A stretch of DNA of 36,245 bases from Oscillospiraceae bacterium (GTDB lineage: Bacteria > Bacillota > Clostridia > Oscillospirales > Ruminococcaceae), in assembly GCA_045545715.1 (NCBI GenBank), contig JAZQBJ010000228.1, forward strand, positions 1 through 36,245, written 5' to 3'. Both the position numbers and the translations under genes were made by a program. Below the pieces are notes generated by a model. It saw only the letters and a program-made list of their open reading frames with translations, did not search any database and had not been told where the DNA came from. Positions 1,391 to 35,523 of this stretch are shown here, piece after piece (position 1 is the stretch's first letter; every line of letters begins with the position of its first letter).

Positions 1391-1444
1391 TACATTCTTA
1401 CACAAAATGCTTTGCGGAATATTCTTTATCAATAAACCGCTAAC

Positions 1445-1618
1445 CAATGATAGCTCTCCACCGAAGTGACAGTCCAAAGGATATTTTCCCTTGGCCCAGC
1501 AAACGGAAAACAAGGCCTTTTTCCGAAAGCTTCGGCGAAAGTTCCTTTCTCACAAAACCGGGAGCCTTCCCTTAATCTGCTTTGCGTTACTGATAGCTTT
1601 CGCGCCTCTACCATTGTT
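1445..1618 (-). promoter_or_regulatory. lysine riboswitch (L-box) aptamer
   Basis: The minus strand reads GGTAGAGGCGCGAAAGCTATCAGTAACGC...AAGGGAAGG...TTCGCCGAAGC...GCTGGGCC...TTGGACTGTCACTTCGGTGGAGAGCTATC. The conserved L-box blocks AGAGGCGC, AGTA, GCCGAAG, CTGG, GGACTGTCA and TGGAGAGCTATC appear in the canonical order. Confidence 0.85.
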
Positions 1619-4205: not shown

Positions 4206-4331
4206 CCTCCCTTGGTCGGAACAAAGCCTGTGAAGCGCGTCCTGCGGACGATTCAGCGAACAGGGTTTGGCGCTGCGGTCAAAATATTCAAGGCGTTACG
4301 CCGCAGAATATTTTGGGCACCGCAAGAATGG
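4206..4331 (+). repeat. solo copy of a ~125-130 nt structured repeat; the second copy is at 32717-32845
   Basis: Aligns with 32717-32845. The 3' ~75 nt are near-identical (GGTTTGGCGC.GCGGTCAAAATATTCAAG..GTTA.GCCGCAGAATATTTTGGGCACCGCAAGA). There is a 10-bp perfect stem, CAAAATATTC (4280-4289) with GAATATTTTG (4306-4315), and a small hairpin with a compensatory change relative to the other copy. Confidence 0.8.
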
Positions 4332-4710: not shown

Positions 4711-6057
4711 ATGAAAAGGATGTTAACTGAAAATATGTTCAAAAAAATCGTTTCTATTCTTCTTTGCATAATAACGGTGCTTTCAGTCTGTGTTCCGGCT
4801 TTTGCCGCCGTTCCGTCTTCCGAAATAATTTCCGAAACCTGGTGCGTAATGGACGCAAAAACCGGCCAGATCCTTATCGGCGGAAACGAAAATAAAAAAA
4901 TGGAACCTGCTTCCATAACAAAAATACTTACCTGTGCAATGGCGCTTGAACGCCTTGACCCGAAGGCCGAATATACTTTTTCAAAAGAAGCTGCAAGCTA
5001 TGACAAAGCCAGCACTCACCTTGCTTTTACCGAAGGTGAAACCTGCACCGTTGAGGATCTTCTTTACGGCGCAATGGTCGAATCCGCAAACGACTGCGCA
5101 ATGGCCCTTGCGGAAGCTTCCGCCGGAAGCCAGCTTGCTTTTGTCCGCCTTATGAATGAAAAACTTGCGGAACTTGGCTGCAGCGGTTCCCATTTTTCCA
5201 ACGCCACCGGAATGCCGGAAATGAATCATTACACAACCGCAAGGGATATGGCTGTCATCACCAAATACGCCCTTTCCGTTCCCGGATTCATGACCTATTT
5301 TTCCGCTTGGGAATGGACTATTCCCGCGACCAACAAAAACAGCGAACGCACCTTCGGAACTCACCACAGCATGATAGTCGGAAGCCAGTATAACGCAACT
5401 TTCGGTTACGATTACGCCACCGGCGGAAAGCTCGGCTGGACCGAAGAAGCCATGCACACCGCCGTTACCACCGCAAAAAACGACGAAATGGAACTTATCT
5501 GCGTTGTTATGAAAAGCAAACACAAAAACGCAAAATATAAGGATTCCACTCTTCTTCTGGATTATTGCTTCAACAACTTCAAAAGCGTTGAGATTCCGGT
5601 AACGGTCAAAAAATCCAAGCTCGACGTTTATGACGGCGACGCTTTTTACGGTGAAATGACAGTTTATCCCATGGCGGCTATAAACATTCTCCTCACCGCC
5701 GATATGAGTTCTTCCGATATCACCGCAAAGGCGAACATTCCCGAATCCTGCCAGCTTTCGGAAGTGAGCAGCGTTGCGCTTGAAATTTCCTTTGATAAAA
5801 CAAGCGAAAACATGTCCACGTCCTCTTTTACCCTTTCTCCGGAATATCATATTGTAAAAGAATCCTCCGTTATTTCTTCCGATGCGGAATTTGAAAACGA
5901 AGGAAAAACTTTCCGCTGGTGGATATTCATTCTTATCCCCGTTTGTGTTCTCGGCGCTTTTGTTATTATCATTCTTCTTATCCGCGCATATAATATTAGA
6001 AAATATACCCGCCTTCGCAAGCACAGACATTACAGAAGGCTCGGCCACGATAAATAA
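4711..6057 (+). CDS. D-alanyl-D-alanine carboxypeptidase (PBP5-like serine peptidase S11) with signal peptide and C-terminal TM anchor
   Basis: SxxK motif in EPASITKILT and SxN motif in VESANDCA. N-terminal signal sequence, and a C-terminal hydrophobic segment followed by a basic tail. Confidence 0.85.
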   Translation: MKRMLTENMFKKIVSILLCIITVLSVCVPAFAAVPSSEIISETWCVMDAKTGQILIGGNENKKMEPASITKILTCAMALERLDPKAEYTFSKEAASYDKASTHLAFTEGETCTVEDLLYGAMVESANDCAMALAEASAGSQLAFVRLMNEKLAELGCSGSHFSNATGMPEMNHYTTARDMAVITKYALSVPGFMTYFSAWEWTIPATNKNSERTFGTHHSMIVGSQYNATFGYDYATGGKLGWTEEAMHTAVTTAKNDEMELICVVMKSKHKNAKYKDSTLLLDYCFNNFKSVEIPVTVKKSKLDVYDGDAFYGEMTVYPMAAINILLTADMSSSDITAKANIPESCQLSEVSSVALEISFDKTSENMSTSSFTLSPEYHIVKESSVISSDAEFENEGKTFRWWIFILIPVCVLGAFVIIILLIRAYNIRKYTRLRKHRHYRRLGHDK

Positions 6058-6102: not shown

Positions 6103-6120
6103 AAATTCAATATTATAAAT

Positions 6121-6397
6121 GCAATGACCGGGAGAAGTAACCGAAACCTTCAGACAACAGAGATGTGAACATAAAGCTGAAAGTTCACTTGCCTGAGCAC
6201 GGCGAAATGCACCCGATGAGCACGGAACGGGAACGCCGCTTTTTATGAGCACGGCAAGTATCGTTTTGCGGCGGCGCCACCGTTAAGCGGCGCGGGATTG
6301 ACTGATCCGACGAGTTATAAACCGGAGTGGAACCGCGATAAATTTGTTTTTATTACCGCCTCCGTCACAAAGAAATTTGTGGCGGAGGTTTTTTTAT
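6121..6397 (+). promoter_or_regulatory. T-box leader with a cysteine (UGC) specifier
   Basis: Stem I elements are GGGAGAAGTA, CAGAGA...GCTGAAAG. The specifier loop is GAAA-TGC-A (TGC at 6208-6210). The T-box sequence AAACCGGAGTGGAACCGCG is at 6319-6337. A terminator at 6356-6389 is followed by a T-run. The downstream genes are cysE and cysS. Confidence 0.9.
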
Positions 6398-6418
6398 TTT
6401 ATCCCCGGCAATTTTGAT

Positions 6419-6468
6419 TGTAGGGGCGGCTATTAGCCGCCCGCGGACGCATAATATGCGCTCCTACA
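6419..6468. repeat. REP/REPIN-like doublet of GTAG-headed hairpins
   Basis: TGTAGGGGCGGCTATTAGCCGCC...GACGCATAATATGCGCTCCTACA. The two inverted units are GTAGGGGCGG.. and GTAGGAGCGC.., both related to 29108-29129. Confidence 0.65.
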
Positions 6469-6489
6469 GTATGGAAAGGAGATAATTTT

Positions 6490-7173
6490 ATGTTTTCCGG
6501 CCTTAAAAAAGATATATATGCAGTCCGTGACCGCGACCCGGCGGCACCTTCCGCATTCAAAGTTTTTCTGCTGTATTCCGGCCTTCATGCAATAATGTGG
6601 CACCGGCCGGCCTATTGGCTCTGGCACCACGGTTTCAAATTCACCGCCCGTGCCCTTTCGCAGATAGTTCGTTTCTGCACCGGTGTTGAAATCCACCCGG
6701 CGGCAAAAATCGGCCGCGGAGTTCTTATCGACCACGGTTCCGGCGTTGTGATAGGCGAAACCGCCGAAGTCGGCGACAACTGCACAATTTATCAGGGCGT
6801 CACCCTTGGCGGTACCGGAAAAGAAACCGGAAAGCGCCACCCGACCCTTATGAACAACGTCATTGTCGGCGCCGGCGCAAAAGTTCTCGGCCCTTTCACA
6901 GTCGGCGAAGGCGCAAAAATCGCCGCGAACGCCGTTGTCCTGAACGCTATTCCGGAATATTCGACCGCCGTGGGCGTTCCCGCAAGGGTTGTCCGCCAGC
7001 ACGGGAAAAAGGTTGTTCCCGCGGAAAAACTTGACCAGGTCCACATTCCCGACCCTGTTTCCCAGGAAATCTGCAAGCTCTATATGGAAATCGACCGCCT
7101 TAAAGCGGAACTTGCGGAAATAAAAAGCCTTCCCAGAGGGGAAGGTGGCATTTCCGAAGGAAATGACGGATGA
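6490..7173 (+). CDS. cysE: serine O-acetyltransferase
   Basis: 227 aa. Contains RDPAAPSAFKVFLLYSGLHAIMWHR, hexapeptide repeats and GVLIDHGSGVVIGETAEVGDNCTIYQGVTLGGTG. The last 15 codons and the stop codon lie inside the left arm of the DUF559 cassette. Confidence 0.95.
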   Translation: MFSGLKKDIYAVRDRDPAAPSAFKVFLLYSGLHAIMWHRPAYWLWHHGFKFTARALSQIVRFCTGVEIHPAAKIGRGVLIDHGSGVVIGETAEVGDNCTIYQGVTLGGTGKETGKRHPTLMNNVIVGAGAKVLGPFTVGEGAKIAANAVVLNAIPEYSTAVGVPARVVRQHGKKVVPAEKLDQVHIPDPVSQEICKLYMEIDRLKAELAEIKSLPRGEGGISEGNDG

Positions 7174-7594
7174 GGGATAGCGATGCCGAGAAATTTTGAA
7201 TCCAATTCAAATCTGTGCGATAAATCACGGGATTTACGCAGAAATATGACGCCGGAAGAAAAACACCTTTGGTATGATTTTTTAAAAACATATCCGGTAC
7301 AGTTCAACAGACAAAGAGTAATCGGTAACTATATAGTTGATTTTTATTGCAGAAAAGCAAACCTCGTAATTGAAATTGACGGGAAACAGCATTACATTCC
7401 CGACGGGTTAAGTTATGATTCGGAACGCACAGATTATCTTAGCAGTGTCGGAATTGAAGTTGTCCGTTTTTTGAATAAAGATATTAATGGAAATTTTGAA
7501 AATGTTTGCGCACACATTGACCTGGTCGTGAAACGCAGGTTGGGGTAATCCCTCATCCGCCCGCTTCGCGGCCACCTTCCCCTCCGGGAAGGCT
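7126..7594 (+). mobile_element. TIR-bounded DUF559 cassette, type 1, copy 1 (putative selfish or mobile unit)
   Basis: The left arm is 7126-7178 and the right arm 7548-7594. They are imperfect inverted repeats with the architecture H1 hairpin, TGGC, H2 hairpin, GGATGAGGGAT box. The same architecture occurs at 31128, 32715 and 35066. Confidence 0.6.
7183..7548 (+). CDS. DUF559 domain protein (Vsr-like / PD-(D/E)xK endonuclease fold)
   Basis: 121 aa. Contains LRRNMTPEEKHLWYDFLKTYPVQFNRQRVIGNYIVDFYCRKANLVIEIDGKQHY...VVRFLNKDI. The SD GAGGG lies 6 nt upstream of the ATG. Confidence 0.85.
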   Translation: MPRNFESNSNLCDKSRDLRRNMTPEEKHLWYDFLKTYPVQFNRQRVIGNYIVDFYCRKANLVIEIDGKQHYIPDGLSYDSERTDYLSSVGIEVVRFLNKDINGNFENVCAHIDLVVKRRLG

Positions 7595-7619
7595 ATTTTA
7601 ATATAAAGGAGACCCAGAA

Positions 7620-9017
7620 ATGAAAGTTTTTAACACAATGACAAGACAGAAAGAGGAACTTGTTCCTCTCGTTCCCGGCGAATTCAAAATCTATGCCTGC
7701 GGACCCACCGTTTATAACTTCATCCACATCGGAAACGCAAGACCCATCTGCGTTTTTGACGTTCTCCGCCGCTATCTTGAATTCCTCGGCAACAAAGTAA
7801 CCTTTGTCCAGAACTTCACCGACGTTGACGACAAAATCATCAAACGCGCCAACGAAGAAGGAATCACTTCCGCGGAAGTAGCAGAAAAATATATTGCCGA
7901 ATATAAAAAAGATGCGGAAGGACTTGGCGTAAAACCCGCAACCATTCACCCGAAGGCAACCGAAAACATGGCAAAAATCATCGAAATTGTCGAATCCCTT
8001 GTTGAAAAAGGCTACGCCTATCCCCTTTCCGACGGATCCGTTTATTTCCGCGTCCGCAAATTTGACGAATACGGAAAACTCTCTCATCAGGACGTTTCCG
8101 ATCTTGAATCCGGTGCAAGAATTGAAGCAGACTCCGAAAAGGAAGACCCGCTTGATTTCTGCCTTTGGAAAGCCGCAAAACCCGGCGAACCCAGCTGGAC
8201 TTCTCCCTGGGGCGAAGGCAGACCCGGCTGGCATATCGAATGCACCGCAATGATCAAAAACCACCTTGGCGAAACCATTGATATCCACTGTGGCGGTCAG
8301 GACCTTATCTTCCCCCACCACGAAAACGAAATCGCCCAGGGCGAATGCTGCACCGGCCATGAATATGCCCGTTACTGGATGCACAACGGATACATCAACG
8401 TCGATAACGTAAAAATGTCCAAATCCCTCGGAAACTTCTTCACCGTCCGTGACGTTGCAGAAAAATACGGCTATGAGCCCATCAAATACATGATGATCCA
8501 GGCTCATTACAGAATGCCCCTCAACTATACCCTCACCGTTATTGAATCTGCAAAAGCTTCTCTTGAAAGAATGTACACCTGCCGCGACAACCTCGATTTT
8601 GCAATTGAAAACGCACCGGCAGAAAACCAGGGCGGCGAAGAGGAATTCATCGCAATGCTCGGCGAAAAGAAACAGGCTTTCATCACCGCCATGGACGATG
8701 ACCTCAACACCGCAGACGCCGTTGCCGTAATCTTCGACCTCGTCCGTGAAATCAACACCTTCATCACCGCGCCTCACGCAAAATCCGCTCTTGAAGCTGC
8801 AGCAGAGCTTTTTGACGCGCTTACCAATGTTCTTGGAATTCTTTACAACCGCAAGAAAGAAAGCCTTGAGGAAGAGGTTGAACAGCTTATTGCCGCAAGA
8901 CAGGCCGCAAGAAAAGAACGCAACTGGGCCGAAGCAGACCGCATCCGCGATGAACTCAAAGCCATGGGAATCGTTCTTGAAGATACTCCCCAGGGCGTTA
9001 AATGGAAAAAGGCATAA
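7620..9017 (+). CDS. cysS: cysteine--tRNA ligase
   Basis: 465 aa. HIGNARP (HIGH motif), KMSKS motif, and the C-terminal DALR-like region. Confidence 0.95.
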   Translation: MKVFNTMTRQKEELVPLVPGEFKIYACGPTVYNFIHIGNARPICVFDVLRRYLEFLGNKVTFVQNFTDVDDKIIKRANEEGITSAEVAEKYIAEYKKDAEGLGVKPATIHPKATENMAKIIEIVESLVEKGYAYPLSDGSVYFRVRKFDEYGKLSHQDVSDLESGARIEADSEKEDPLDFCLWKAAKPGEPSWTSPWGEGRPGWHIECTAMIKNHLGETIDIHCGGQDLIFPHHENEIAQGECCTGHEYARYWMHNGYINVDNVKMSKSLGNFFTVRDVAEKYGYEPIKYMMIQAHYRMPLNYTLTVIESAKASLERMYTCRDNLDFAIENAPAENQGGEEEFIAMLGEKKQAFITAMDDDLNTADAVAVIFDLVREINTFITAPHAKSALEAAAELFDALTNVLGILYNRKKESLEEEVEQLIAARQAARKERNWAEADRIRDELKAMGIVLEDTPQGVKWKKA

Positions 9018-24641: not shown

Positions 24642-26516
24642 TCAGACAAGTTCAAAAATAGCTGCGGAAAGGGGCGCCATATCGGTGCTGATAACAACTC
24701 TTCCTTCGTCAATATAAGATTCGCGGATTCCGTTTTCATAATTTCCGCTTCCGCCGTAGCATTTTTCATCGGTGGAAAGAATTTCCTTCCAATAGGTTCT
24801 GTGTCCAACTTCAACACGGAAGTTGCGGTATTCGTTGGGGCAGAAGTTGAAAACAAAGAGAAGCGCTCTTCCGTCTTTTGCATAGCGGCGGAAAGCAAGA
24901 ACGTTTCTGTCCGCTTCGTCGCAGCTTGACCATTGGAAACCTTCCCAGTTTTCGTCGTTTTCCCAACAGGCGGGATATGTTTTATAGATCCTGTTGAGTT
25001 CCTTTGAAAGAGCCTGGAGATTTCTGTGGCTGTCATATTCGAGAAGGAACCAATCCAGTTCTCTCTTTTCGTCCCATTCGATGAAATGGCCGAATTCCTG
25101 GCCCATGAAAAGAAGTTTCTTTCCGGGGAATCCGATCATGTATGCGAGCAGAGCCCGGAGTCCCGCGAATTTCTGGTCATATTCGCCGGGCATTTTATTG
25201 ATAAGGGAGCATTTTCCGTGAACAACTTCATCATGGGAGAAAGGAAGGATGAAATTTTCGGAGAATGCGTACATCATTCCGAAGGTGAGTTTGTTATGGT
25301 GGTGCTGGCGATAGATAGGATCAAGGGACATATAGGAAAGGGTATCGTTCATCCAGCCCATGTTCCATTTGAAATTGAATCCGAGACCGCCGTCTGCCGC
25401 CGGGCGGGAAACCATCGGGAAGGAGGTGGATTCTTCCGCAACCATCATAACGCCGGGGTATTCTCTGTTAACAGCGGTGTTGATATCACGGAGCATTCCG
25501 ATGGCCTCGAGGTTTTCTCTTCCGCCGAACTGGTTGCGTTCCCATTCGTTATCGTTCTTTCCGTAGTCGCGGTAAAGCATGGAGGAAACGGCATCGACGC
25601 GGATTCCGTCGATGTGGTATTTTTCAATCCAGTACATTGCGGAGGAAGCGAGGAAGCATCTTACTTCGTTTCTTCCGAAATCGAAAACTTTGGTTCCCCA
25701 GTCTTCGCGTTCGCCCATCTGGGGGTTTTTATATTCATAACAGGGTTCGCCGTCGAAATTCATAAGACCTATGGAGTCCTTCGGGAAATGCGCCGGGACC
25801 CAGTCCATGATAACGCCGATTCCGTTTTTATGGAGGGTATCCACAAAATACATGAAATCTTCCGGGGTTCCGTAACGGCTTGTGGGTGCAAAATATCCGA
25901 GGCACTGGTAACCCCAGGAACCGTCGAAGGGGTGTTCTGTAACGGGAAGAAGCTCGATGTGGGTATAGTTCATTTCCTTGGCATAGGCCGCAAGTTCATC
26001 GGCGGATTTTCTGTAATCGAAGAAGTTTCCGTCGTGATATTTCCTCCAGGAGCCGATATGTACTTCATAGATGTTTACCGGGCTGTGGTACATATCCCAT
26101 TTTTTTCGGTTTTCGAGCCATTTTTTATCTCCCCATTTATATTTCGGGGAACAGACCATTGAAGCTGTGTTCGGTCTTGTTTCGCAATGGAAGGCATAGG
26201 GGTCGGCTTTTTCGATGATTTCGCCCCAGGAAGTTTCAATTGCGAATTTATATCTGGTATAATCTTCGAGGTTATCAACGCGGCATTCCCAAACTCCGTC
26301 GCTTATTTTATGCATCGGGTCTGCGCCGAAAGACCAGTAGTTCCAGTCGCCGACCACGGAAACGGATTTTGCATTTGGTGCCCAGGTTCTGAACATAACG
26401 CCTTTTTTTCTGCTTCCTCTTATCCTATGTGCGCCAAGAAATTCGTATGCGCGATAGTTTGTTCCCTGGTGGAAAAGATATACAGGAAGTTCAAGCGGAT
26501 TTTGTTTTTTTGTCAT
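24642..26516 (-). CDS. glgB: 1,4-alpha-glucan branching enzyme
   Basis: 624 aa with GH13 motifs: DWVPAHF, GIRVDAV and [10 protein letters not shown]. Confidence 0.95.
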
Positions 26517-26772
26517 AGGTTTCTCCTTTCAAATCGGCCTTCCACAAAAAGGAAGGTGCCCGCAAGGCAGGCGGAAGGGTTTTTGACTGTAATTATATAT
26601 ATAATATTGTAACATCTTTAGCATACCTTTTTCAATGCCGAATGTGTAGAAATAATTACAACATTTTATATTAAAATGACGAAAGCTCCTAATTTTTTTA
26701 CAAAACTGTCTTTAAATAAAACACATCCTGTGATATACTGTTTTTATATTCCACCACAGGAGGTTTTTTACT

Positions 26773-28802: not shown

Positions 28803-28950
28803 TGTTCATCCTCCGGGTGATTCAAGTTTGTTTAACCATCTATATGTTATCACAACCCGGCCGGATATACAAGAACAGACAAAACAACGGTCAGTAAGGT
28901 ATGTTTAAATATTGTGTGGCGGATATATCCGCCTATTTTTTTGCCTTTTT

Positions 28951-29046
28951 GGATGAGGGATTTTTATTGCGGCGGGAGTTGATGTTGGTTTCCACCCTTC
29001 TGTCTTTCGCCTTCGGCGAAATCCACCTCCCCTGATAGGGTAGGCT
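28951..29046 (+). repeat. ORF-less relic of a type-1 DUF559 cassette (inner left box plus right-arm-like end)
   Basis: GGATGAGGGAT (28951-28961) is identical to 7168-7178. About 45 nt later comes CGCCTTCGGCG and then CCACCTCCCCTGATAGGGTAGGCT, which parallels the right arm CCACCTTCCCCTCCGGGAAGGCT. Confidence 0.55.
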
Positions 29047-29052
29047 TTTTTC

Positions 29053-29129
29053 GGGCGAACACATAGGTTCGCCCCTACGGAGACGGAATTAATATCGGTG
29101 TGTTATGGTAGGGGCGGATATTATCCGCC
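29053..29129. repeat. REP/REPIN-like inverted pair of GTAG-headed hairpins
   Basis: GGGCGAACACATAGGTTCGCCCCTAC (29053-29078, reverse orientation) and GTAGGGGCGGATATTATCCGCC (29108-29129). A related hairpin, GGCGGATATATCCGCC, is at 28918-28933. Confidence 0.65.
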
Positions 29130-29151: not shown

Positions 29152-29215
29152 ACAATTCCTCAGTCAGCTTCGCTGCCAGCTCCCTTTACACAAGGGAGCC
29201 TGCCCTCCGGGAAAG
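29152..29215 (+). repeat. solo relic resembling the right arm of the type-2 DUF559 cassette
   Basis: AATTCCTCAGTCAGCTTCGCTGCCAGCTCCCTTTACACAAGGGAGCC compares with GAATCCCTCCGTCAGCCTTCGGCTGACACCTCCCTTTAGGCAAGGGAGGC at 33231-33280. Confidence 0.55.
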
Positions 29216-29322: not shown

Positions 29323-31128
29323 ATGCCGAATGAGAACATAAGAAACTTTTGTATAATCGCACATATCGACCACGGCAAATCCACCCTTGCCGACAGAATC
29401 CTTGAAAACACCGAAGCCGTCACTCCCCGCGAAATGGAAGAACAGCTTCTGGATAATATGGACATTGAACGTGAACGCGGAATCACCATAAAATCCCGCG
29501 CTGTCCGTCTTGATTATAAAGCCGACGACGGAAACAACTATGTCTTCAACCTTATCGATACCCCCGGACACGTTGACTTCAACTATGAAGTTTCCCGTTC
29601 TCTTGCCGCCTGCGAGGGAGCTGTTCTTATTGTTGACGCTTCCCAGGGAGTTGAGGCACAGACTCTTGCAAACACATATCTTGCGGTTGACCACAACCTT
29701 GAAATCGTTCCGGTAATCAACAAAATCGACCTTCCCGCGGCAGACCCGGACAGAGTTGCCCATGAGATCGAGGATATCATCGGAATTCCCGCTCTTGATG
29801 CGCCGCAGATTTCCGCAAAGACCGGCGTTAACATACATTCCGTTCTTGAAGCGATCGTCGAGGGAATTCCCGCTCCGGAAGGAAACGACGAAGCTCCGCT
29901 CAAGGCGCTTATCTTCGACTCCATTTATGACAGCTACCGCGGAGTAATCGTTTACGTCCGCGTTGTTGACGGCGAACTCCATTCCGGCGACAGAATCAGA
30001 ATGATGGCGACCGGCGCGGAATTTGACGTTGTTGAAGTCGGTTATATGGGCGCAACAAGGCTTGTTCCCAGCGGAGTTCTCAAGGCCGGCGAAGTCGGCT
30101 ACATCACCGCTTCCATCAAAACCGTTGCGGATACCGCAGTCGGCGACACCGTTACCCTTGCGGAAAATCCCACCGACGAACCTCTTGCAGGTTACAAAAA
30201 GGTCAATCCGATGGTTTATGCGGGTATTTATCCCCTCGACGGCGCAAAATACGGCGACCTTCGCGAAGCTCTTGAAAAACTTATCCTCAACGACGCTTCT
30301 CTCAGCTTTGAGCCGGAAACTTCCGCCGCTCTCGGTTTCGGTTTCCGCTGCGGATTCCTCGGACTTCTTCATATGGAAGTTATCCTCGAGCGTCTTGAAA
30401 GAGAATATAACCTCGACCTCATAACCACCGCGCCCAGCGTTGTTTATAAACTTCACCTCACCGACGGACGCACCCTTGAACTTGACAACCCGACCAACTA
30501 TCCCGACCCGGCTATTATTGATTCCACCGAAGAACCCTACGTCCGGGCTTCCATCTTTACTCCCACCCAATATATCGGAAGCATTATGGAGCTTTGTCAG
30601 GAACGCCGCGGAATTTATAAAGATACCAAATATCTTGAGGCAGACCGCTGTGAAGTTCACTATGAACTCCCCCTCGGCGAAATTATCTATGACTTTTTCG
30701 ATGCTCTCAAGAGCCGAACCAGAGGTTACGCCTCCTTCGACTATGAACCCTGCGGATATAAAGCCAGCAAGCTTGTTAAACTCGACATTCTTCTCAACGG
30801 AGAAATGGTCGACGCCCTTTCCATGATGGTTTTCGCAGATAACGCCTATCCCAGAGCGAGAAGAATGGTCGAAAGACTCCGCGACAACATCAGCCGCCAG
30901 CTTTTCGAAGTTCCGGTCCAGGCGGCCATCGGCGGAAAGATCATCGCCCGCGAAACCATAAAAGCCCTCCGCAAGGACGTTCTTGCAAAATGTTACGGCG
31001 GCGATATTTCCCGAAAGAAAAAACTTCTTGAAAAACAGAAGGAAGGTAAAAAGAAAATGCGCCGCATTGGTTCCGTCGAGCTTCCGAAGGAAGCATTCAT
31101 GGCGGTGCTCAAGCTGGACGATGACTAA
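29323..31128 (+). CDS. lepA: translation elongation factor 4
   Basis: 601 aa. [36 protein letters not shown], and the LepA C-terminal domain. Confidence 0.97.
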
Positions 31129-31600
31129 GCCTTCCCAGAGGGGAAGGTGGCACAGCCGGCGGCTGTGACGAAAGAGGGATAACAATGCCAAGGATTTATA
31201 AAGCAAATGAAGATCTGCGCAATAATTCCCATGAACTCCGAAAGAATATGACGCCGCAGGAAAAGCATTTGTGGTATGATTTTCTGAATTCATACGAAAT
31301 TTCCTTCAGACGTCAAGTTGTTATTAGAAATTACATCGTTGATTTCTATTGCAGAAAGGCAAAACTTGCCGTTGAAATTGACGGTACCCAACATTACACT
31401 TCCGAATCAATACAATACGATAAAGAACGTACGGAATATCTTGAAAGTTGCGGAATAATGGTTCTTCGTTTTTTAAACAAAGACATTGACCGTAATTTTG
31501 AAAATTCCTGCGCTTATATTGACCTAAATGTGAAACAAAGGCTTGGGTAAAATCCCTCTTCCGCCTCGTTTCACTCGGCACCTTCCCCTCTGGGAAGGCT
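31128..31600 (+). mobile_element. TIR-bounded DUF559 cassette, type 1, copy 2
   Basis: The left arm (31128-31180) is AGCCTTCCCAGAGGGGAAGGTGGCACAGCCGGCGGCTGTGACGAAAGAGGGAT. The right arm (31552-31600) is ATCCCTCTTCCGCC...GGCACCTTCCCCTCTGGGAAGGCT. The first base of the left arm is the last A of the lepA TAA. Confidence 0.6.
31185..31550 (+). CDS. DUF559 domain protein (Vsr-like / PD-(D/E)xK fold)
   Basis: 121 aa. LRKNMTPQEKHLWYDFLNSYEISFRRQVVIRNYIVDFYCRKAKLAVEIDGTQHY...VLRFLNKDI. It is collinear with 7183-7548. Confidence 0.85.
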   Translation: MPRIYKANEDLRNNSHELRKNMTPQEKHLWYDFLNSYEISFRRQVVIRNYIVDFYCRKAKLAVEIDGTQHYTSESIQYDKERTEYLESCGIMVLRFLNKDIDRNFENSCAYIDLNVKQRLG

Positions 31601-31710
31601 TATTATAAAATAAATTTTCTTTTTATTAATTAAAAAGAAGGTTTTTTGCAAAATTCGGTGTATATAGTATATGTAAGACAAAATTTTTTCAAAAAAGGAG
31701 GCGGCAGAAG

Positions 31711-32709: not shown

Positions 32710-32716
32710 AAGGAAG

Positions 32717-32845
32717 CCTCCCTTGCCTAAAGAGCAAAGCTTGCGAAGCGCGCCCAGTGGGCGAAACAGCGAGCAAGGTTTGGCGCCGCGGTCAAAATAT
32801 TCAAGATGTTATGCCGCAGAATATTTTGGGCACCGCAAGAGTTGG
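32717..32845 (+). repeat. second copy of the ~125-130 nt structured repeat (see 4206-4331)
   Basis: The alignment to 4206-4331 is described there. Stem: 32793-32802 with 32819-32828. Hairpin: CGCCC-agt-GGGCG at 32751-32763. Confidence 0.8.
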
Positions 32846-32885
32846 GTGGCATTTCCGTAAGGAAATGACGGAGGGATTCTTTTTT

Positions 32886-33269
32886 ATGGAAAGGAAACAT
32901 AATCCAAAGCTTACGGAAAATGCAAAAGAACTTCGGAAAAATATGACCAAAGAAGAAAAACATCTTTGGTACGATTTTTTGAAAGGATATCCCGTCCGTT
33001 TTCTTCGCCAGAAAATAATCGATGATTACATTGCCGATTTTTATTGCCACAGAGCAAGGCTTGTAATTGAACTTGACGGAAGTCAGCATTATACAAAGGA
33101 CGGACTTTTGAAAGACAAAATCCGGACAGAAAGAATTGAAAAACGTAATTTGACCGTTTTTAGAATTCCGAACGGTGAAATAAATCATAATTTCGAGGGA
33201 ATCTGCAGATTCATTGATGAATTTGTGCAGGAATCCCTCCGTCAGCCTTCGGCTGACACCTCCCTTTAG
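32886..33269 (+). CDS. DUF559 domain protein, type 2
   Basis: 127 aa from ATG 32886 (SD GGAGGG, 9-nt spacing). LRKNMTKEEKHLWYDFLKGYPVRFLRQKIIDDYIADFYCHRARLVIELDGSQHY...VFRIPNGEI. The track ORF start at 32757 runs through the arm and repeat. Confidence 0.85.
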   Translation: MERKHNPKLTENAKELRKNMTKEEKHLWYDFLKGYPVRFLRQKIIDDYIADFYCHRARLVIELDGSQHYTKDGLLKDKIRTERIEKRNLTVFRIPNGEINHNFEGICRFIDEFVQESLRQPSADTSL

Positions 33270-33306
33270 GCAAGGGAGGCTTATATCCCGGAAAGGAGGA
33301 GGACCC

Positions 33307-35065: not shown

Positions 35066-35523
35066 AGCCTCCCTTGCCTAAAGGGAGGTGGCATTTCCGT
35101 AAGGAAATGACGGAGGGATTCTTTTTTATGGAAAGGAAACATAATCCAAAGCTTACGGAAAATGCAAAGGAACTTCGGAAAAATATGACCAAAGAAGAAA
35201 AACACCTTTGGTACGATTTTTTGAAGGATTATCCCGAACGTTTTTTGCGGCAAAAGGTAATTGACGATTATATTGCTGATTTTTATTGCCACAAAGCAAG
35301 GCTTGTAATCGAACTTGACGGAAGTCAGCATTATACAAAGGACGGACTTTTGAAAGACAAAATCCGGACAGAAAGAATTGAGAAACGTGATTTGACCGTT
35401 TTGAGAATTCCACACGGTGAGATAAATCATAATTTTGAGGGAATCTGCAGATTCATCGATGAATTTGTGCAGGAATCCCTCCGTCAGCCTTCGGCTGACA
35501 CCTCCCTTTAGGCAAGGGAGGCT
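35066..35523 (+). mobile_element. TIR-bounded DUF559 cassette, type 2, copy 2 (compact form)
   Basis: The left arm (35066-35121) is AGCCTCCCTTGCCTAAAGGGAGGTGGCATTTCCGTAAGGAAATGACGGAGGGATTC. The reverse complement of the right arm (35473-35523) is AGCCTCCCTTGCCTAAAGGGAGGTGTCAGCCGAAGGCTGACGGAGGGATTC. Confidence 0.6.
35128..35511 (+). CDS. DUF559 domain protein, type 2
   Basis: 127 aa. By manual alignment it differs from the 32886-33269 product at 7 residues. Confidence 0.85.
   Translation: MERKHNPKLTENAKELRKNMTKEEKHLWYDFLKDYPERFLRQKVIDDYIADFYCHKARLVIELDGSQHYTKDGLLKDKIRTERIEKRDLTVLRIPHGEINHNFEGICRFIDEFVQESLRQPSADTSL

Follow-up and report, generated by a model that had tools for sequence, protein, structure and literature searches.

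What is a small nuclease-like gene enclosed by folding inverted repeats doing between cysE and cysS in an Oscillospiraceae genome, and what are those repeats? The locus lies in a contig of 36,245 nucleotides, all of which was analyzed and is called the window here. The initial annotation had described a 121-aa DUF559 open reading frame (ORF) bracketed by imperfect inverted repeats, and had read the unit as a compact mobile or selfish cassette inserted into a T-box-regulated operon. The unit spans 7126-7594 (469 bp) and consists of the DUF559 gene between two inverted modules of ~50 nt. We refer to it as copy 1, and its surroundings are as follows (CM, covariance model).

6115-6366, plus strand: T-box leader 5' of cysE (Rfam RF00230, 72.5 bits, E 2.4e-15)
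6358-6389: terminator-like hairpin
6490-7173, plus strand: cysE, serine acetyltransferase (Pfam Hexapep/SATase_N)
7126-7177, plus strand: copy 1 left module (CM match 49.1 bits; single-stranded DNA fold z = -4.6)
7183-7548, plus strand: copy 1 DUF559 ORF, 121 aa (PF04480, E 1e-29)
7549-7594, minus strand: copy 1 right module (CM match 43.9 bits; fold z = -3.9)
7620-9017, plus strand: cysS (Pfam tRNA-synt_1e, E 2e-132)

The T-box match is full length (model positions 1-219 of 219), with a score below the Rfam gathering score of 93. The arms read as first quoted (7126-7178 and, as the reverse complement, 7548-7594), and their outer 28 nt are 93% complementary. As single strands, both arms fold into a first hairpin, H1, and a second, H2, which differs between the arms but folds in each, as had been claimed. 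In the left arm, H1 is CCTTCCC-AGAG-GGGAAGG followed by a T-G junction, H2 is CATTTCC-GAA-GGAAATG, and the inner box, GGATGAGGG, doubles as the Shine-Dalgarno (SD) sequence of the DUF559 ORF; the right H2, CCGC-GAA-GCGG, is unlike the left one. cysE ends inside the left arm, which encodes its last 15 codons and TGA, and this TGA (7171) lies 12 nt 5' of the DUF559 ATG (7183) in the same frame. The 15-residue tail is missing from the CysE homologs P0121 and P0125, which are 95-97% identical. Copy 1 probably entered cysE three codons ahead of its stop, with the arm now providing 15 codons and a stop.

The same architecture had been noted at 31128, 32715 and 35066, and a further copy was found at each of these positions. 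Within 36 kb, the window holds four DUF559 ORFs with inverted structured arms and three solo modules; copies 2 to 4 were assigned from ORF-arm anatomy, Pfam and the covariance model.

26536-26582, plus strand: solo module in the 5' region of a minus-strand gene at 24642-26516 (CM 25.2 bits)
28992-29046, minus strand: degenerate solo module (CM 28.1 bits)
29153-29201, minus strand: solo module, type B, upstream of lepA (CM 54.1 bits)
31128-31602, plus strand: copy 2, between lepA and dgt (left module 31128-31179, ORF 31185-31550, right module 31553-31600 on the minus strand)
32715-33281, plus strand: copy 3, between dgt and dnaG (H2 and box 32841-32879, ORF 32886-33269, right module 33231-33281 on the minus strand)
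35066-35523, plus strand: copy 4, between dnaG and rpoD (left module 35066-35121, ORF 35128-35511, right module 35473-35523 on the minus strand)

All four ORFs match PF04480 at 88-107 bits (cut-off 20.6), and the eight arms score 38-54 bits in a search of the window with the arm covariance model (E 1e-10 to 1e-14). The left H1 of copy 3 is split by a structured insert of ~110 nt (32732-32840) that the initial annotation did not mention; a search of Rfam returned no family matching the arms or this insert. In copy 4, the C-terminal tail of the DUF559 protein is encoded by the right arm.

The proposed covariance-model search for further copies was productive. Genome loci totaling 627 kb yielded 290 modules, nearly the same DNA containing ~87-90 DUF559 ORFs, and independent metagenome loci totaling 211 kb yielded 223 modules, some of them in tandem arrays. 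A module profile run with nhmmer was far less sensitive (185 versus 290 matches; 5 of the 11 window modules) and gives a rough orphan count only. Among 136 distinct modules, 95.4% of the H1/H2 stem cells are paired, compared to 74% in shuffles and at most 55% in slid controls, a percentage that is inflated because perfect stems had seeded the model to which the alignments (A4 and A6) were fitted; the relation between box and H1 lies outside that model. Stem cells altered on both sides number 447, compared to 144 in shuffles and to only 17 one-sided, wobble-type changes, these cell counts not being event counts because the modules are related by descent. G-T wobble is nearly absent, and the covariation first claimed for the window arms holds in this larger set. 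In H1, a pyrimidine strand pairs with a purine strand, and a near-invariant G.T pair closes the hairpin. H2 abuts H1 directly and is free in sequence yet always a hairpin, 11-30 nt long (~15-35 nt with its connectors), with GNA triloops in half of the loops. The modules carry an invariant G.T / G-C junction, and left and right arms differ systematically (left C-G with right G-C 12 times, the reverse once). H1 and the box are common to different elements; H2 is common to both arms of an element in 0 of 30. Solo modules were found in both orientations. The simplest account would be an ordinary, vertically inherited small gene whose palindromic flanks or terminators arose by chance, and copy 2 could be cited for it, given that its ortholog likewise follows lepA in relative L002. 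We give this account virtually no credence, as it is already contradicted by CM E-values down to 1e-14 with hundreds of modules, by the empty sites in close relatives described below and by position-specific covariation that is three-way.

The third partner in that covariation is the inner box, which is the mirror image of the purine half of H1. The triplets C-G*G, T-A*A/T or G-C*T account for 93.8% of 1088 triplets in a single register only; in the same alignment, other registers reach at most 48% and antiparallel Watson-Crick pairing at most 56%. This was replicated on 94 new modules, in which 92.5% of triplets were compatible, compared to at most 47% in other registers. Mutual information between the H1 5' half and the box runs along the parallel diagonal (0.95, 0.55, 0.48, 0.84 and 0.74 bits), while off-diagonal values are mostly below 0.1 bits, the largest being 0.35. 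The correlation is position-specific, because the off-diagonal values are low between equally variable columns; phylogenetic linkage was considered as its source and was rejected on the same values. At T.G wobble cells, the box tracks the purine strand in 24 of 27. Some haplotypes violate the code, for example GCTCCCCT with TGAGAGGT (7 modules), and the CCTTCCC family of the window has one or two C-G*A mismatches. A "TG bulge" considered for the box of this family proved unneeded, as the in-register reading GGAT-GAGG gives T*A-T and one C-G*A mismatch. In the left module of copy 1, read by hand with the code from the module alignment, a triplex-compatible box base stands at 6 of the 7 H1 pairs. 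Collectively, the covariation indicates that H1 and the box carry the code of a putative purine-motif intrastrand DNA triplex in which H2 would be the linker. The best explanation of the module would be a BoxC/PIT/TM-type intrastrand triplex whose second loop has turned into a hairpin. A purine-motif intrastrand triplex of the same block order forms in vitro in TM_ECO, and is impossible in RNA (PMC4666352).

This last point bears on an alternative in which the arms act as RNA hairpins that process, stabilize or translationally gate the DUF559 mRNA within host operons. The box would then be the SD, the H1 5' half would be anti-SD-like and the outer H1 with a U-tract would be a weak terminator, and the protein could be an RNA-binding, RAP-like nuclease. 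Such a role would fit the position of the box 6-9 nt ahead of the ATG, the terminator-like appearance of H1 with its A/T-rich flank on the outward strands, the strong co-orientation of cassettes with flanking genes and the structural matches of the protein to RAP-like mitoribosomal proteins. However, the box follows H1 in the parallel (mirror) register, with the poor antiparallel fit given above, and it departs from the SD when H1 changes, as in GGGGGG or TGAGAGG. Furthermore, the purine-motif code excludes RNA strands (PMC4666352), G-U wobble is almost absent by the counts of one-sided and two-sided changes above, and the right arms are the same module on the opposite strand, with solo modules in both orientations. 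We regard an RNA-level function as very unlikely. An anti-SD/SD switch, in which the box and the 5' half of H1 would form Watson-Crick pairs, was also considered and rejected, given that such pairing reaches at most 56% at any fixed offset versus 94% for the parallel reading; the near mirror symmetry of the tracts allows 5-7 bp to pair, but in registers that shift.

The AF2 model of the copy 1 protein (pLDDT 88) was compared with solved structures using Foldseek, and the closest was NGO0050 (PDB 3HRL; TM 0.88, E 2e-19), with further matches to I-Bth0305I (3R3P; TM-score 0.80), to Vsr (0.53-0.59) and to RAP-like mitoribosomal proteins. A sequence-profile match to I-Bth0305I was also obtained (E 3e-3), and the protein is related to PHROG homing-endonuclease families. 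Its invariant residues (alignment A1) include D53, E64, D66, Q69 and H70. The cassette protein is a predicted nuclease of ~120 aa with a Vsr-like PD-(D/E)XK fold. The ORFs are under purifying selection (dN/dS 0.06-0.13), and the arms of copies 3 and 4 (W3 and W4), read by hand, are identical over a comparable ~97 nt even though dS is 0.29; at the level of sequence, these comparisons show purifying selection acting on the ORF and also on the arms. More than 5000 DUF559 homologs were found, many of them on contigs of ~1 kb, which are typical assembly breaks at multi-copy elements. Phage or plasmid vehicles were considered and rejected, as a search gave just 2 metagenomic "phage" matches and no relevant plasmids.

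All four window sites show presence/absence among close relatives. The junction between cysE and cysS is empty in L081 (CysE 97% identical) and L082/83 (95%), so that the empty alleles sought by the initial annotation do exist, and a more distant relative (L084/85) holds an ORF-less arm doublet there; the L084 doublet is of a different H1 type and its insertion point is 5 nt off that of the window. The lepA-dgt site holds an ORF-less doublet in L087, sites 2 to 4 are variably filled in L086-L089, and the dnaG-rpoD site of copy 4 is empty in L086-L089. L086 also has a lone H1 hairpin, a candidate excision footprint. Such doublets, seen in L081, L084/85, L087, L026 and L051, measure 110-210 bp and lie in intergenic regions and gene ends. 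L084/L085 carry ~10 modules and zero DUF559 ORFs, and orphan modules exceed the arms of intact ORFs in some relatives. W3 and W4 are 93% identical, compared to 82% for the orthologous L086 copy and 84-87% for host genes against L086, and copy 4 appears to have arisen later as a duplicate of copy 3, arms included. Many different insertion contexts occur among 160 loci. The genes on the two sides of an element run (+,+) in 46 cases as opposed to a single (-,-) case, a bias in which transcription dependence and replication-strand preference are not separable. The flanks are rich in A (60% A and 3% G at position -1). No duplicated target site was seen, and neither such a duplication nor a clean excision point could be delimited, the empty alleles having diverged too far for a junction exact to the base. 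In L044, pairs of modules separated by 360-450 nt had suggested additional cassettes, which were rejected because other palindromic, GC-rich repeats and no DUF559 ORF lie between the modules. The family is common in Oscillospiraceae and other Clostridia and occurs also in Negativicutes and Anaerolineae. The mobile or selfish cassette first proposed is supported by the empty sites, the ORF-less doublets, the variable filling of sites, the likeness of W3 and W4 and the purifying selection. Taken as a whole, the unit probably belongs to a novel class of small mobile elements that comprises autonomous cassettes as well as MITE-like doublets, with a Vsr-like nuclease that would act on the folded ends.

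Movement of the ORF could also be explained by intragenomic homing, in which a free-standing homing endonuclease cuts doublets or solo hairpins and repair templated by a filled copy, through the ~50-bp arm homology, inserts the ORF; the arms themselves would spread by another route. The relationship to Vsr-like I-Bth0305I and to the PHROG families fits this, as do the H1 and box common to different elements and the doublets at sites that are filled elsewhere (cysE-cysS in L084/85, lepA-dgt in L087). Yet the usable homology falls to blocks of ~20-25 nt because H2 differs between arms and copies, and the L084 doublet, with its other H1 type, is displaced by 5 nt. Homing would leave the arrival of doublets at new sites unexplained, and a homing endonuclease is defined by a single cognate site, whereas the window has four unrelated ones. 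We consider homing unlikely.

The search for similar arrangements was extended to other bacteria. In Escherichia coli, the DUF559 gene ycjD adjoins a canonical TM_ECO; 62% of genomes have ycjD and 95% have the TM piece (separate totals), and the triplex repeats persist in genomes without ycjD. Neisseria gonorrhoeae has 23-27 genomic copies of its repeat, 2 of which flank the DUF559 gene, and the DUF559 genes of Synechocystis and Picosynechococcus are flanked by triplex motifs. In Proteobacteria, the DUF559 gene is single-copy and the repeat dispersed. With the cassettes included, DUF559 genes are associated with predicted triplex repeats in four phyla. Knowledge of the BoxC/PIT/TM repeats dates back to the 1990s; they adopt triplexes in vitro and are markers of unstable loci, but a function and an origin have been lacking, with "no transposase or integrase" nearby (PMC4666352); intrastrand triplex repeats were also the subject of Hoyne..Maher 2000, as cited in PMC4666352. 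We tentatively propose, as a possibility that falls somewhat short of an even chance, that DUF559 proteins are the missing partner of these repeats, acting as structure-specific nucleases that read a single-stranded DNA hairpin-triplex and making up a new mobile class. This proposal covers E. coli YcjD, Neisseria NGO0050 and the cyanobacterial and clostridial homologs, and takes two forms, autonomous cassettes in Clostridia and a single-copy gene with dispersed repeats in Proteobacteria. The ends of the element would be set by a three-stranded base code and not by duplex sequence.

The proteobacterial arrangement also invites a different account, in which a domesticated system resembles REP/RAYT: the modules would be dispersed repeats tolerated by the host, and DUF559, inherited mostly vertically, would maintain, disperse or resolve them and be flanked by them because it acts in cis. 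The single-copy gene with a dispersed repeat in E. coli and Neisseria counts in its favor, and the tandem arrays, the excess of orphan modules in some relatives and the ORF-free L084/L085 are in keeping with it. Against it stand four ORF-bearing cassettes with their own arm pairs at four unrelated, site-polymorphic sites in 36 kb, a W4 that looks like a recent copy of W3 moved with its arms, and the many homologs on ~1-kb contigs. We judge this account to be rather improbable.

Returning to the mobile-element reading, we compared the cassette with known systems. It shares with BoxC/PIT/TM_ECO (Holder et al. 2015, PMC4666352) the one-strand order of a pyrimidine block followed by the complementary purines and then by their purine mirror (class II, C-G*G), and a dispersed, multi-copy distribution at variable loci. 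The second loop of TM_ECO is N3, whereas that of the window modules is the H2 hairpin, and the window modules have the invariant G.T / G-C junction and occur as inverted pairs around a gene. Given that the published triplex finder, ITxF, admits loops of 1-6 nt (PMC4666352), the window modules would escape it because their second loop is a whole hairpin. A physical triplex has been demonstrated for TM_ECO only (PMC4666352), and the triplex of the window modules is predicted from sequence. Vsr-like (EDxHD) homing endonucleases such as I-Bth0305I and those of "fractured genes" (PMC3239194, PMC2677866) share the fold family and the habit of small, selfish intergenic or intragenic nuclease genes, but they have one cognate site (an intron, intein or split gene) in place of four unrelated sites per genome, and lack flanking structured inverted repeats and ORF-less derivatives. 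Integron cassettes have a single 3' attC and an integrase with attI, whereas the window cassettes have two inverted modules and are scattered in housekeeping operons; a search of the window for an integrase (ORFs and Pfam) found none. The REP/REPIN-RAYT system likewise has a small nuclease gene flanked by inverted short structured repeats, which are also dispersed as doublets and singlets, and implies a single-stranded DNA fold. This flanking-repeat logic is what first connected RAYTs to REPs. In contrast, the RAYT is an HUH/Y1 enzyme whereas the window protein matches PF04480 only, with no HUH Y1 domain; the REP is a simple imperfect palindrome and not a hairpin-triplex repeat; and the clostridial DUF559 gene is itself multi-copy and site-polymorphic. 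IS200/IS605 elements are similarly very small, with hairpin ends that differ between left and right, an orientation bias and no obvious target duplication, and base triples are among the DNA-DNA interactions that help set the cleavage sites of IS608. They differ in using an HUH Y1 transposase with both hairpins acting on one strand, whereas the modules of the cassette lie on opposite strands (two-fold symmetric) and its enzyme family is unrelated. The ORF-less doublets resemble small repeats such as MITEs, Correia, RUP, BOX and RPE, and RPEs also add residues to host proteins, as in the CysE tail. MITEs derive from DDE-type IS elements and have plain terminal inverted repeats and target duplications; we know of no triplex code in them. 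Finally, the nick made by Vsr falls 5' of the T of a T:G mismatch, and the window modules carry the comparable near-invariant G.T at the base of H1, but Vsr is single-copy and not repeat-flanked, and the cassette has no cytosine methyltransferase partner.

The initial annotation had also called the element undescribed. That part stands, insofar as full-text searches of the literature gave no description of DUF559-bearing cassettes or of a DUF559 link to triplex repeats; the arm itself is of the BoxC/PIT/TM_ECO type of triplex motif already in print (PMC4666352). By these searches the cassette is previously undescribed, and this is the first tie of triplex repeats to a specific protein.

In our model, the cassette would be a promoter-less gene for a Vsr-like nuclease of ~120 aa between two inverted ~50-nt modules, co-oriented with the host operon and presumably expressed by read-through, with the left-arm box also serving as its SD. 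Each module would fold as single-stranded DNA on its own strand, with H1, the abutting H2 and then the 3' purine box, which would run back along the purine strand of H1 as a third strand (G*G-C, A*A-T, T*A-T), a T in the box standing opposite an inverted G-C pair. The nuclease would recognize the folded module and nick it, a candidate site by analogy with Vsr being 5' of the invariant T in the G.T pair, and this nick would initiate the copying or relocation not just of the cassette but also, in trans, of the arm doublets. This movement could be transposition proper or nuclease-triggered gene conversion into existing arm doublets. We infer both the role of the DUF559 protein as the mobilizing enzyme and the transposition chemistry; we know of no transposition chemistry that relies on a lone 120-aa PD-(D/E)XK nuclease.

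If this model is correct, the cassette would be the first mobile element with ends specified by base triples and the first whose sole protein is a Vsr-like PD-(D/E)XK nuclease, and a triplex-reading protein could be of use as a reagent. Triplex repeats gain a candidate partner protein through their consistent physical association, in four phyla, with a single small nuclease family, and the question of their function therefore becomes directly testable. The cassettes probably break metagenome assemblies. They are abundant in gut Clostridia, where they sit inside essential operons and change the C-terminal ends of housekeeping proteins, CysE among them.

The final 15 codons of cysE and its stop lie within the left arm of copy 1 (7126-7178; sequence reading of 6300-8200), and the cysE TGA is in frame with the DUF559 ORF, 12 nt upstream of it (sequence and ORF list). 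The reverse complement of 7548-7594 is the left arm again with another second hairpin, so the inverted arms of the initial annotation were recovered, as was its T-box leader before cysE (6115-6366, full length at 72.5 bits, although under the Rfam gathering score). The cassettes, the genes around copy 1 and the solo modules (single arm units) are as follows:

6490-7173, plus strand, cysE (ORF list)
7183-7548, plus strand, DUF559 ORF of copy 1, 121 aa (PF04480, E 1e-29)
from 7620, plus strand, cysS (sequence reading and ORF list)
26536-26582, plus strand, solo module (covariance model match)
28992-29046, minus strand, solo module (covariance model match)
29153-29201, minus strand, solo module (covariance model match)
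31185-31550, plus strand, DUF559 ORF of copy 2 (PF04480)
32886-33269, plus strand, DUF559 ORF of copy 3 (PF04480)
35128-35511, plus strand, DUF559 ORF of copy 4 (PF04480)

Inverted arms surround each of the other three ORFs as well. The four cassettes occupy the cysE-cysS, lepA-dgt, dgt-dnaG and dnaG-rpoD junctions, all on the same strand as the flanking genes, and the left H1 of copy 3 is split by an insert of ~110 nt. Both hairpins, H1 and H2, fold in every arm as single-stranded DNA (z = -3.1 to -5.9). A covariance model (CM) of the module returned the eight arms at 38-54 bits, plus the three solo modules.

Other small repeats were seen besides the modules. The ~110-nt element occurs twice in the window (32732-32840, the splitter of the copy 3 left H1, and 4219-4327; 86% identity), each time preceded by CCTCCCTTG and about 8 nt. 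Its copies carry compensatory differences in at least two stems (GTCC/GGAC versus GCCC/GGGC; CCTGT/ACAGG versus CTTGC/GCAAG), its RNA fold z-score is only -0.9, and it had no Rfam match and was not found among the 89 loci searched; this could be another mobile repeat, small and structured, with H1 as its target. In a related genome (L086, Dgt 95% identical), the left H1 of the orthologous dgt-dnaG cassette (region 5503-5620) is split at nearly the same position, after the loop (...AAAG/G), by a different insert that is itself a module, and insertions seem to favor the 3' side of the H1 loop. A palindrome family, GGGGCGG-N-TATTA-N-CCGCC, lies upstream of cysE and lepA, adjoining modules (6423-6441, 29111-29129 and also 28917-28935; 4 matches versus 0.04 expected). 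In locus L044, the DNA between paired modules is filled with GC-rich palindromes of a similar kind, which suggests BIME-like mosaics. The window also holds a lysine riboswitch (1443-1618, minus strand; RF00168, 102.8 bits).

The proposed covariation of the stems held across 136 distinct modules, with 95.4% paired versus 74% in column shuffles and at most 55% in slid controls, a percentage inflated by fitting the alignment to a model seeded with perfect stems. Changes on both sides of a stem numbered 447 cells versus 144 in shuffles, with only 17 one-sided (G-U type) changes, and the compensatory types are plain despite the seeding (for example, the H1 closing pair is C-G in 75 and G-C in 57). 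The sequence of H2 is free; the same H2 was never found in both arms of one element (0/30). Half of its loops are GNA triloops (GAA 28, GCA 13, GTA 5, GGA 3), which form unusually stable DNA mini-hairpins when closed by C-G. No linker separates H1 from H2, and their junction consists of a near-invariant G2·T28 pair and an invariant G29-C74 pair. Left and right arms are systematically unlike: the H1 closing pair is C-G in 33/44 left arms and G-C in 32/53 right arms, and the left/right combination (C-G, G-C) occurred 12 times and the reverse once.

The inner box of the module follows each H1 variant in mirror order: CCTCCC/GGAGGG, CCTCCCC/GGAGGGG, CCTCTCC/GGAGAGG, CCTCCCTC with GGAGGGAG, CCCTCCTC with GGGAGGAG, CCCCCC with GGGGGG, and GCTCCC with TGAGGG. 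Mutual information between the eight columns of the H1 5' half and the box was concentrated on the parallel diagonal (0.95, 0, 0.15, 0.55, 0.48, 0.01, 0.84 and 0.74 bits, the low values being near-invariant columns), with off-diagonal values mostly below 0.1 bits and at most 0.35. Shared ancestry would have lifted the off-diagonal values too, which argues against it as the cause of the diagonal, and the CM carries no term tying box columns to H1. Of 1088 triplets, 93.8% were C-G·G, T-A·A, T-A·T or G-C·T, compared to at most 48% in other registers and at most 56% for antiparallel Watson-Crick pairing. Where H1 has a T·G wobble, the box base is G, following the purine strand (16/16 in the first alignment, 8/11 in the metagenome set). 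The same diagonal was replicated in 94 new distinct metagenome modules (92.5% versus at most 47%), which included new haplotypes such as GCCCCCTC with TGGGGGAG. Judged from these sequence patterns, the H1-box code is that of a purine-motif (reverse-Hoogsteen) triple helix, in which H1 would be the duplex, H2 the linker, and the box a third strand antiparallel to the purine strand. RNA strands are excluded from purine-motif triplexes, according to Holder et al. 2015 and work cited there (PMC4666352); this, the avoidance of wobble pairs and the placement of the module on opposite strands in the two arms point to a DNA-level, single-strand fold. By hand tally, copies 3 and 4 match the code at 8/8 positions and the solo module at 29153 at 7/8, and the CCTTCCC family (copies 1 and 2) matches at 5-6 of 7, with recurring C-G·A mismatches. 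Formation of the triplex in vivo is our inference.

Intrastrand purine-motif triplex repeats are already known as BoxC, PIT elements or TM_ECO, with the pattern CCCTCNCCC-N3-6-GGGNGAGGG-N3-GGGNGAGGG (PMC4666352). The same study demonstrated triplex formation with CD and NMR, counted 3610 copies in 262 proteobacterial genomes, linked them to genomic instability, and reported no known function ("we never found ... transposases or integrases" nearby). In comparison, the clostridial arm is a hairpin-linked version with H2 as the second loop, and would thus escape the published finder, which allows loops of 1-6 nt (PMC4666352). DUF559 genes accompany such repeats elsewhere. The ORF of E. coli ycjD runs into a partial TM that encodes the YcjD C terminus (L090, 900-1135); 170 nt downstream comes a canonical TM_ECO, next to a duplicated 3' piece of the gene. 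Among complete E. coli genomes, 3377/5426 have the ycjD region. Triplex repeats persist in E. coli genomes without ycjD, so a genome need not carry both at a given time. In N. gonorrhoeae, a homolog of the 3HRL protein (L172) has CCTCTCTCCC-TGT-GGGAGAGAG-CTA-GAGAGAGGG repeats on both sides; this repeat type occurs in 23-27 places in the 2.17-Mb genome, and two would fall within 1 kb by chance at about 1e-4, a rough estimate. A plasmid copy in Synechocystis (L171) has one TM on each side, and one on pAQ6 of Picosynechococcus PCC 7002 (L173) sits within arrays of CCCCC-N5-GGGGG-N2-3-GGGGG units. Unlike in the clostridial cassettes, the Neisseria repeats are direct and the 5' ends of the Synechocystis repeats face inward. 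The association spans Bacillota, Chloroflexota (L011, L013), Pseudomonadota and Cyanobacteriota, and parallels the logic that tied RAYTs to REPs.

Comparison of orthologous sites revealed both gain and loss. The arm-encoded CysE tail is also found in 90% identical homologs and is absent from two closer ones, P0121 (97%) and P0125 (95%). Contigs of these two have empty cysE-cysS sites: cysE abuts cysS in L081, and a 23-nt spacer without an element separates them in L082/83. Removal of 7126-7594 from the window yields a cysE tail ...EIKILI-TAA overlapping the cysS SD. An 88% relative (L084/85, two NCBI MAGs) carries an ORF-less doublet at this site (left arm, 29 nt, right arm) of another H1 type, 5 nt from the insertion point in the window, and L081 has a doublet between T-box terminator and cysE, with one arm nearly identical to the copy 1 left arm. 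Across lepA-dgt-dnaG-rpoD, L086 has a frameshifted copy at dgt-dnaG with the other two sites empty, L087 (Dgt 90%) has a doublet at lepA-dgt and nothing at the other two, and modules are entirely absent from L088 (87%) and L089 (76%). At the exact position of cassette 4, L086 carries a 17-nt hairpin, AGCCTTTAAGCAAGGCT (7797-7813), whose loop matches the right-arm H1 loop at 8/9 positions; it could be a footprint left by excision or a proto-H1 target. Copies 3 and 4 are 93.2% identical to each other and 82% identical to the L086 copy, compared to 84-87% for host genes between the genomes; most simply, copy 4 is a later copy of copy 3, 2.2 kb away, with gene conversion between them as the alternative.

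More than 5000 sequences are related to the DUF559 ORF; those with names come from Oscillospiraceae MAGs, and many are found on ~1-kb contigs, as is typical where repeats break an assembly. Scanning species-representative genomes yielded 80 loci from a set of at least 568 confirmed stretches. Clostridia account for most of the 80 and Negativicutes, Anaerolineae and Desulfovibrionaceae for a few, and arms of this kind flank the ORF in the majority. With a strict hairpin finder, 143 distinct modules were identified, and 74 of them were used to build the CM. The search for more copies then returned 290 modules in 627 kb of genome loci, compared to ~87-90 DUF559 ORFs counted over nearly the same sequence, and 223 modules in 211 kb of independent metagenome loci, some of them in head-to-tail arrays that repeat every ~50 nt. 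Such arrays adjoin DUF559 genes in L129 (1238-2081), L124 (1085-1428), L131 (558-901), L148 and L158, and in some cases an inverted array comes next.

Purifying selection acts on the ORFs (dN/dS 0.10 for copies 3 and 4, 0.06-0.13 for other pairs), and the arms of copies 3 and 4 are identical over comparable stretches (about 97 nt) despite a dS of 0.29. No target-site duplication was found at cassette junctions; the base just outside the module is A in 60% and G in 3%. Cassettes are co-oriented with the upstream gene in 59/71 cases and the downstream gene in 66/80 (both flanks +,+ in 46, -,- in 1), which fits expression by read-through and equally a replication-strand bias. A promoter-like TTGAAA-17-nt-TAnnnT match lies within all four ORFs (7370-7398, 31372-31400, 33108-33136, 35350-35378). 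Its TTGAAA hexamer is part of the coding sequence for the catalytic motif (V/I)E(I/L)DG, and an active promoter here could drive expression of the host gene downstream.

An AF2 model of the copy 1 protein (pLDDT 88) matched NGO0050 (3HRL, TM 0.88) and the I-Bth0305I catalytic domain (0.80) in Foldseek, as well as Vsr and the nuclease domains of PvuRts1I and AbaSI. Profile searches agreed (3HRL, E 2e-19; 3R3P, the I-Bth0305I domain, E 3e-3), and PHROGs matches were homing-endonuclease families. Residues D53, E64, D66, Q69 and H70 and an N-terminal T-E-L-W helix are invariant. Foldseek also matched RAP-like subunits of ciliate and apicomplexan mitoribosomes (6Z1P, 9I05; TM about 0.66-0.69), a reminder that the fold can bind RNA. 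Vsr nicks 5' of T in a T:G mismatch, and by analogy the nuclease may recognize or nick the near-invariant G·T at the base of H1; it would act on the module triplex.

Alongside the anatomy, the cross-phylum association and the covariation of the stems and of the three strands, orthologous sites that gained or lost the element, nonautonomous derivatives and purifying selection support the compact mobile cassette of the initial annotation, which would move by transposition or by nuclease-triggered copying into doublets. Its claim of novelty stands for the cassette, given that our full-text literature search found no description of a DUF559-bearing one, but not for the arms, which are a hairpin-linked version of a known, unexplained structural repeat. 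We rate the DUF559 cassette as categorically new as a mobile element class, and it gives the BoxC/PIT/TM-type repeat a candidate partner enzyme.
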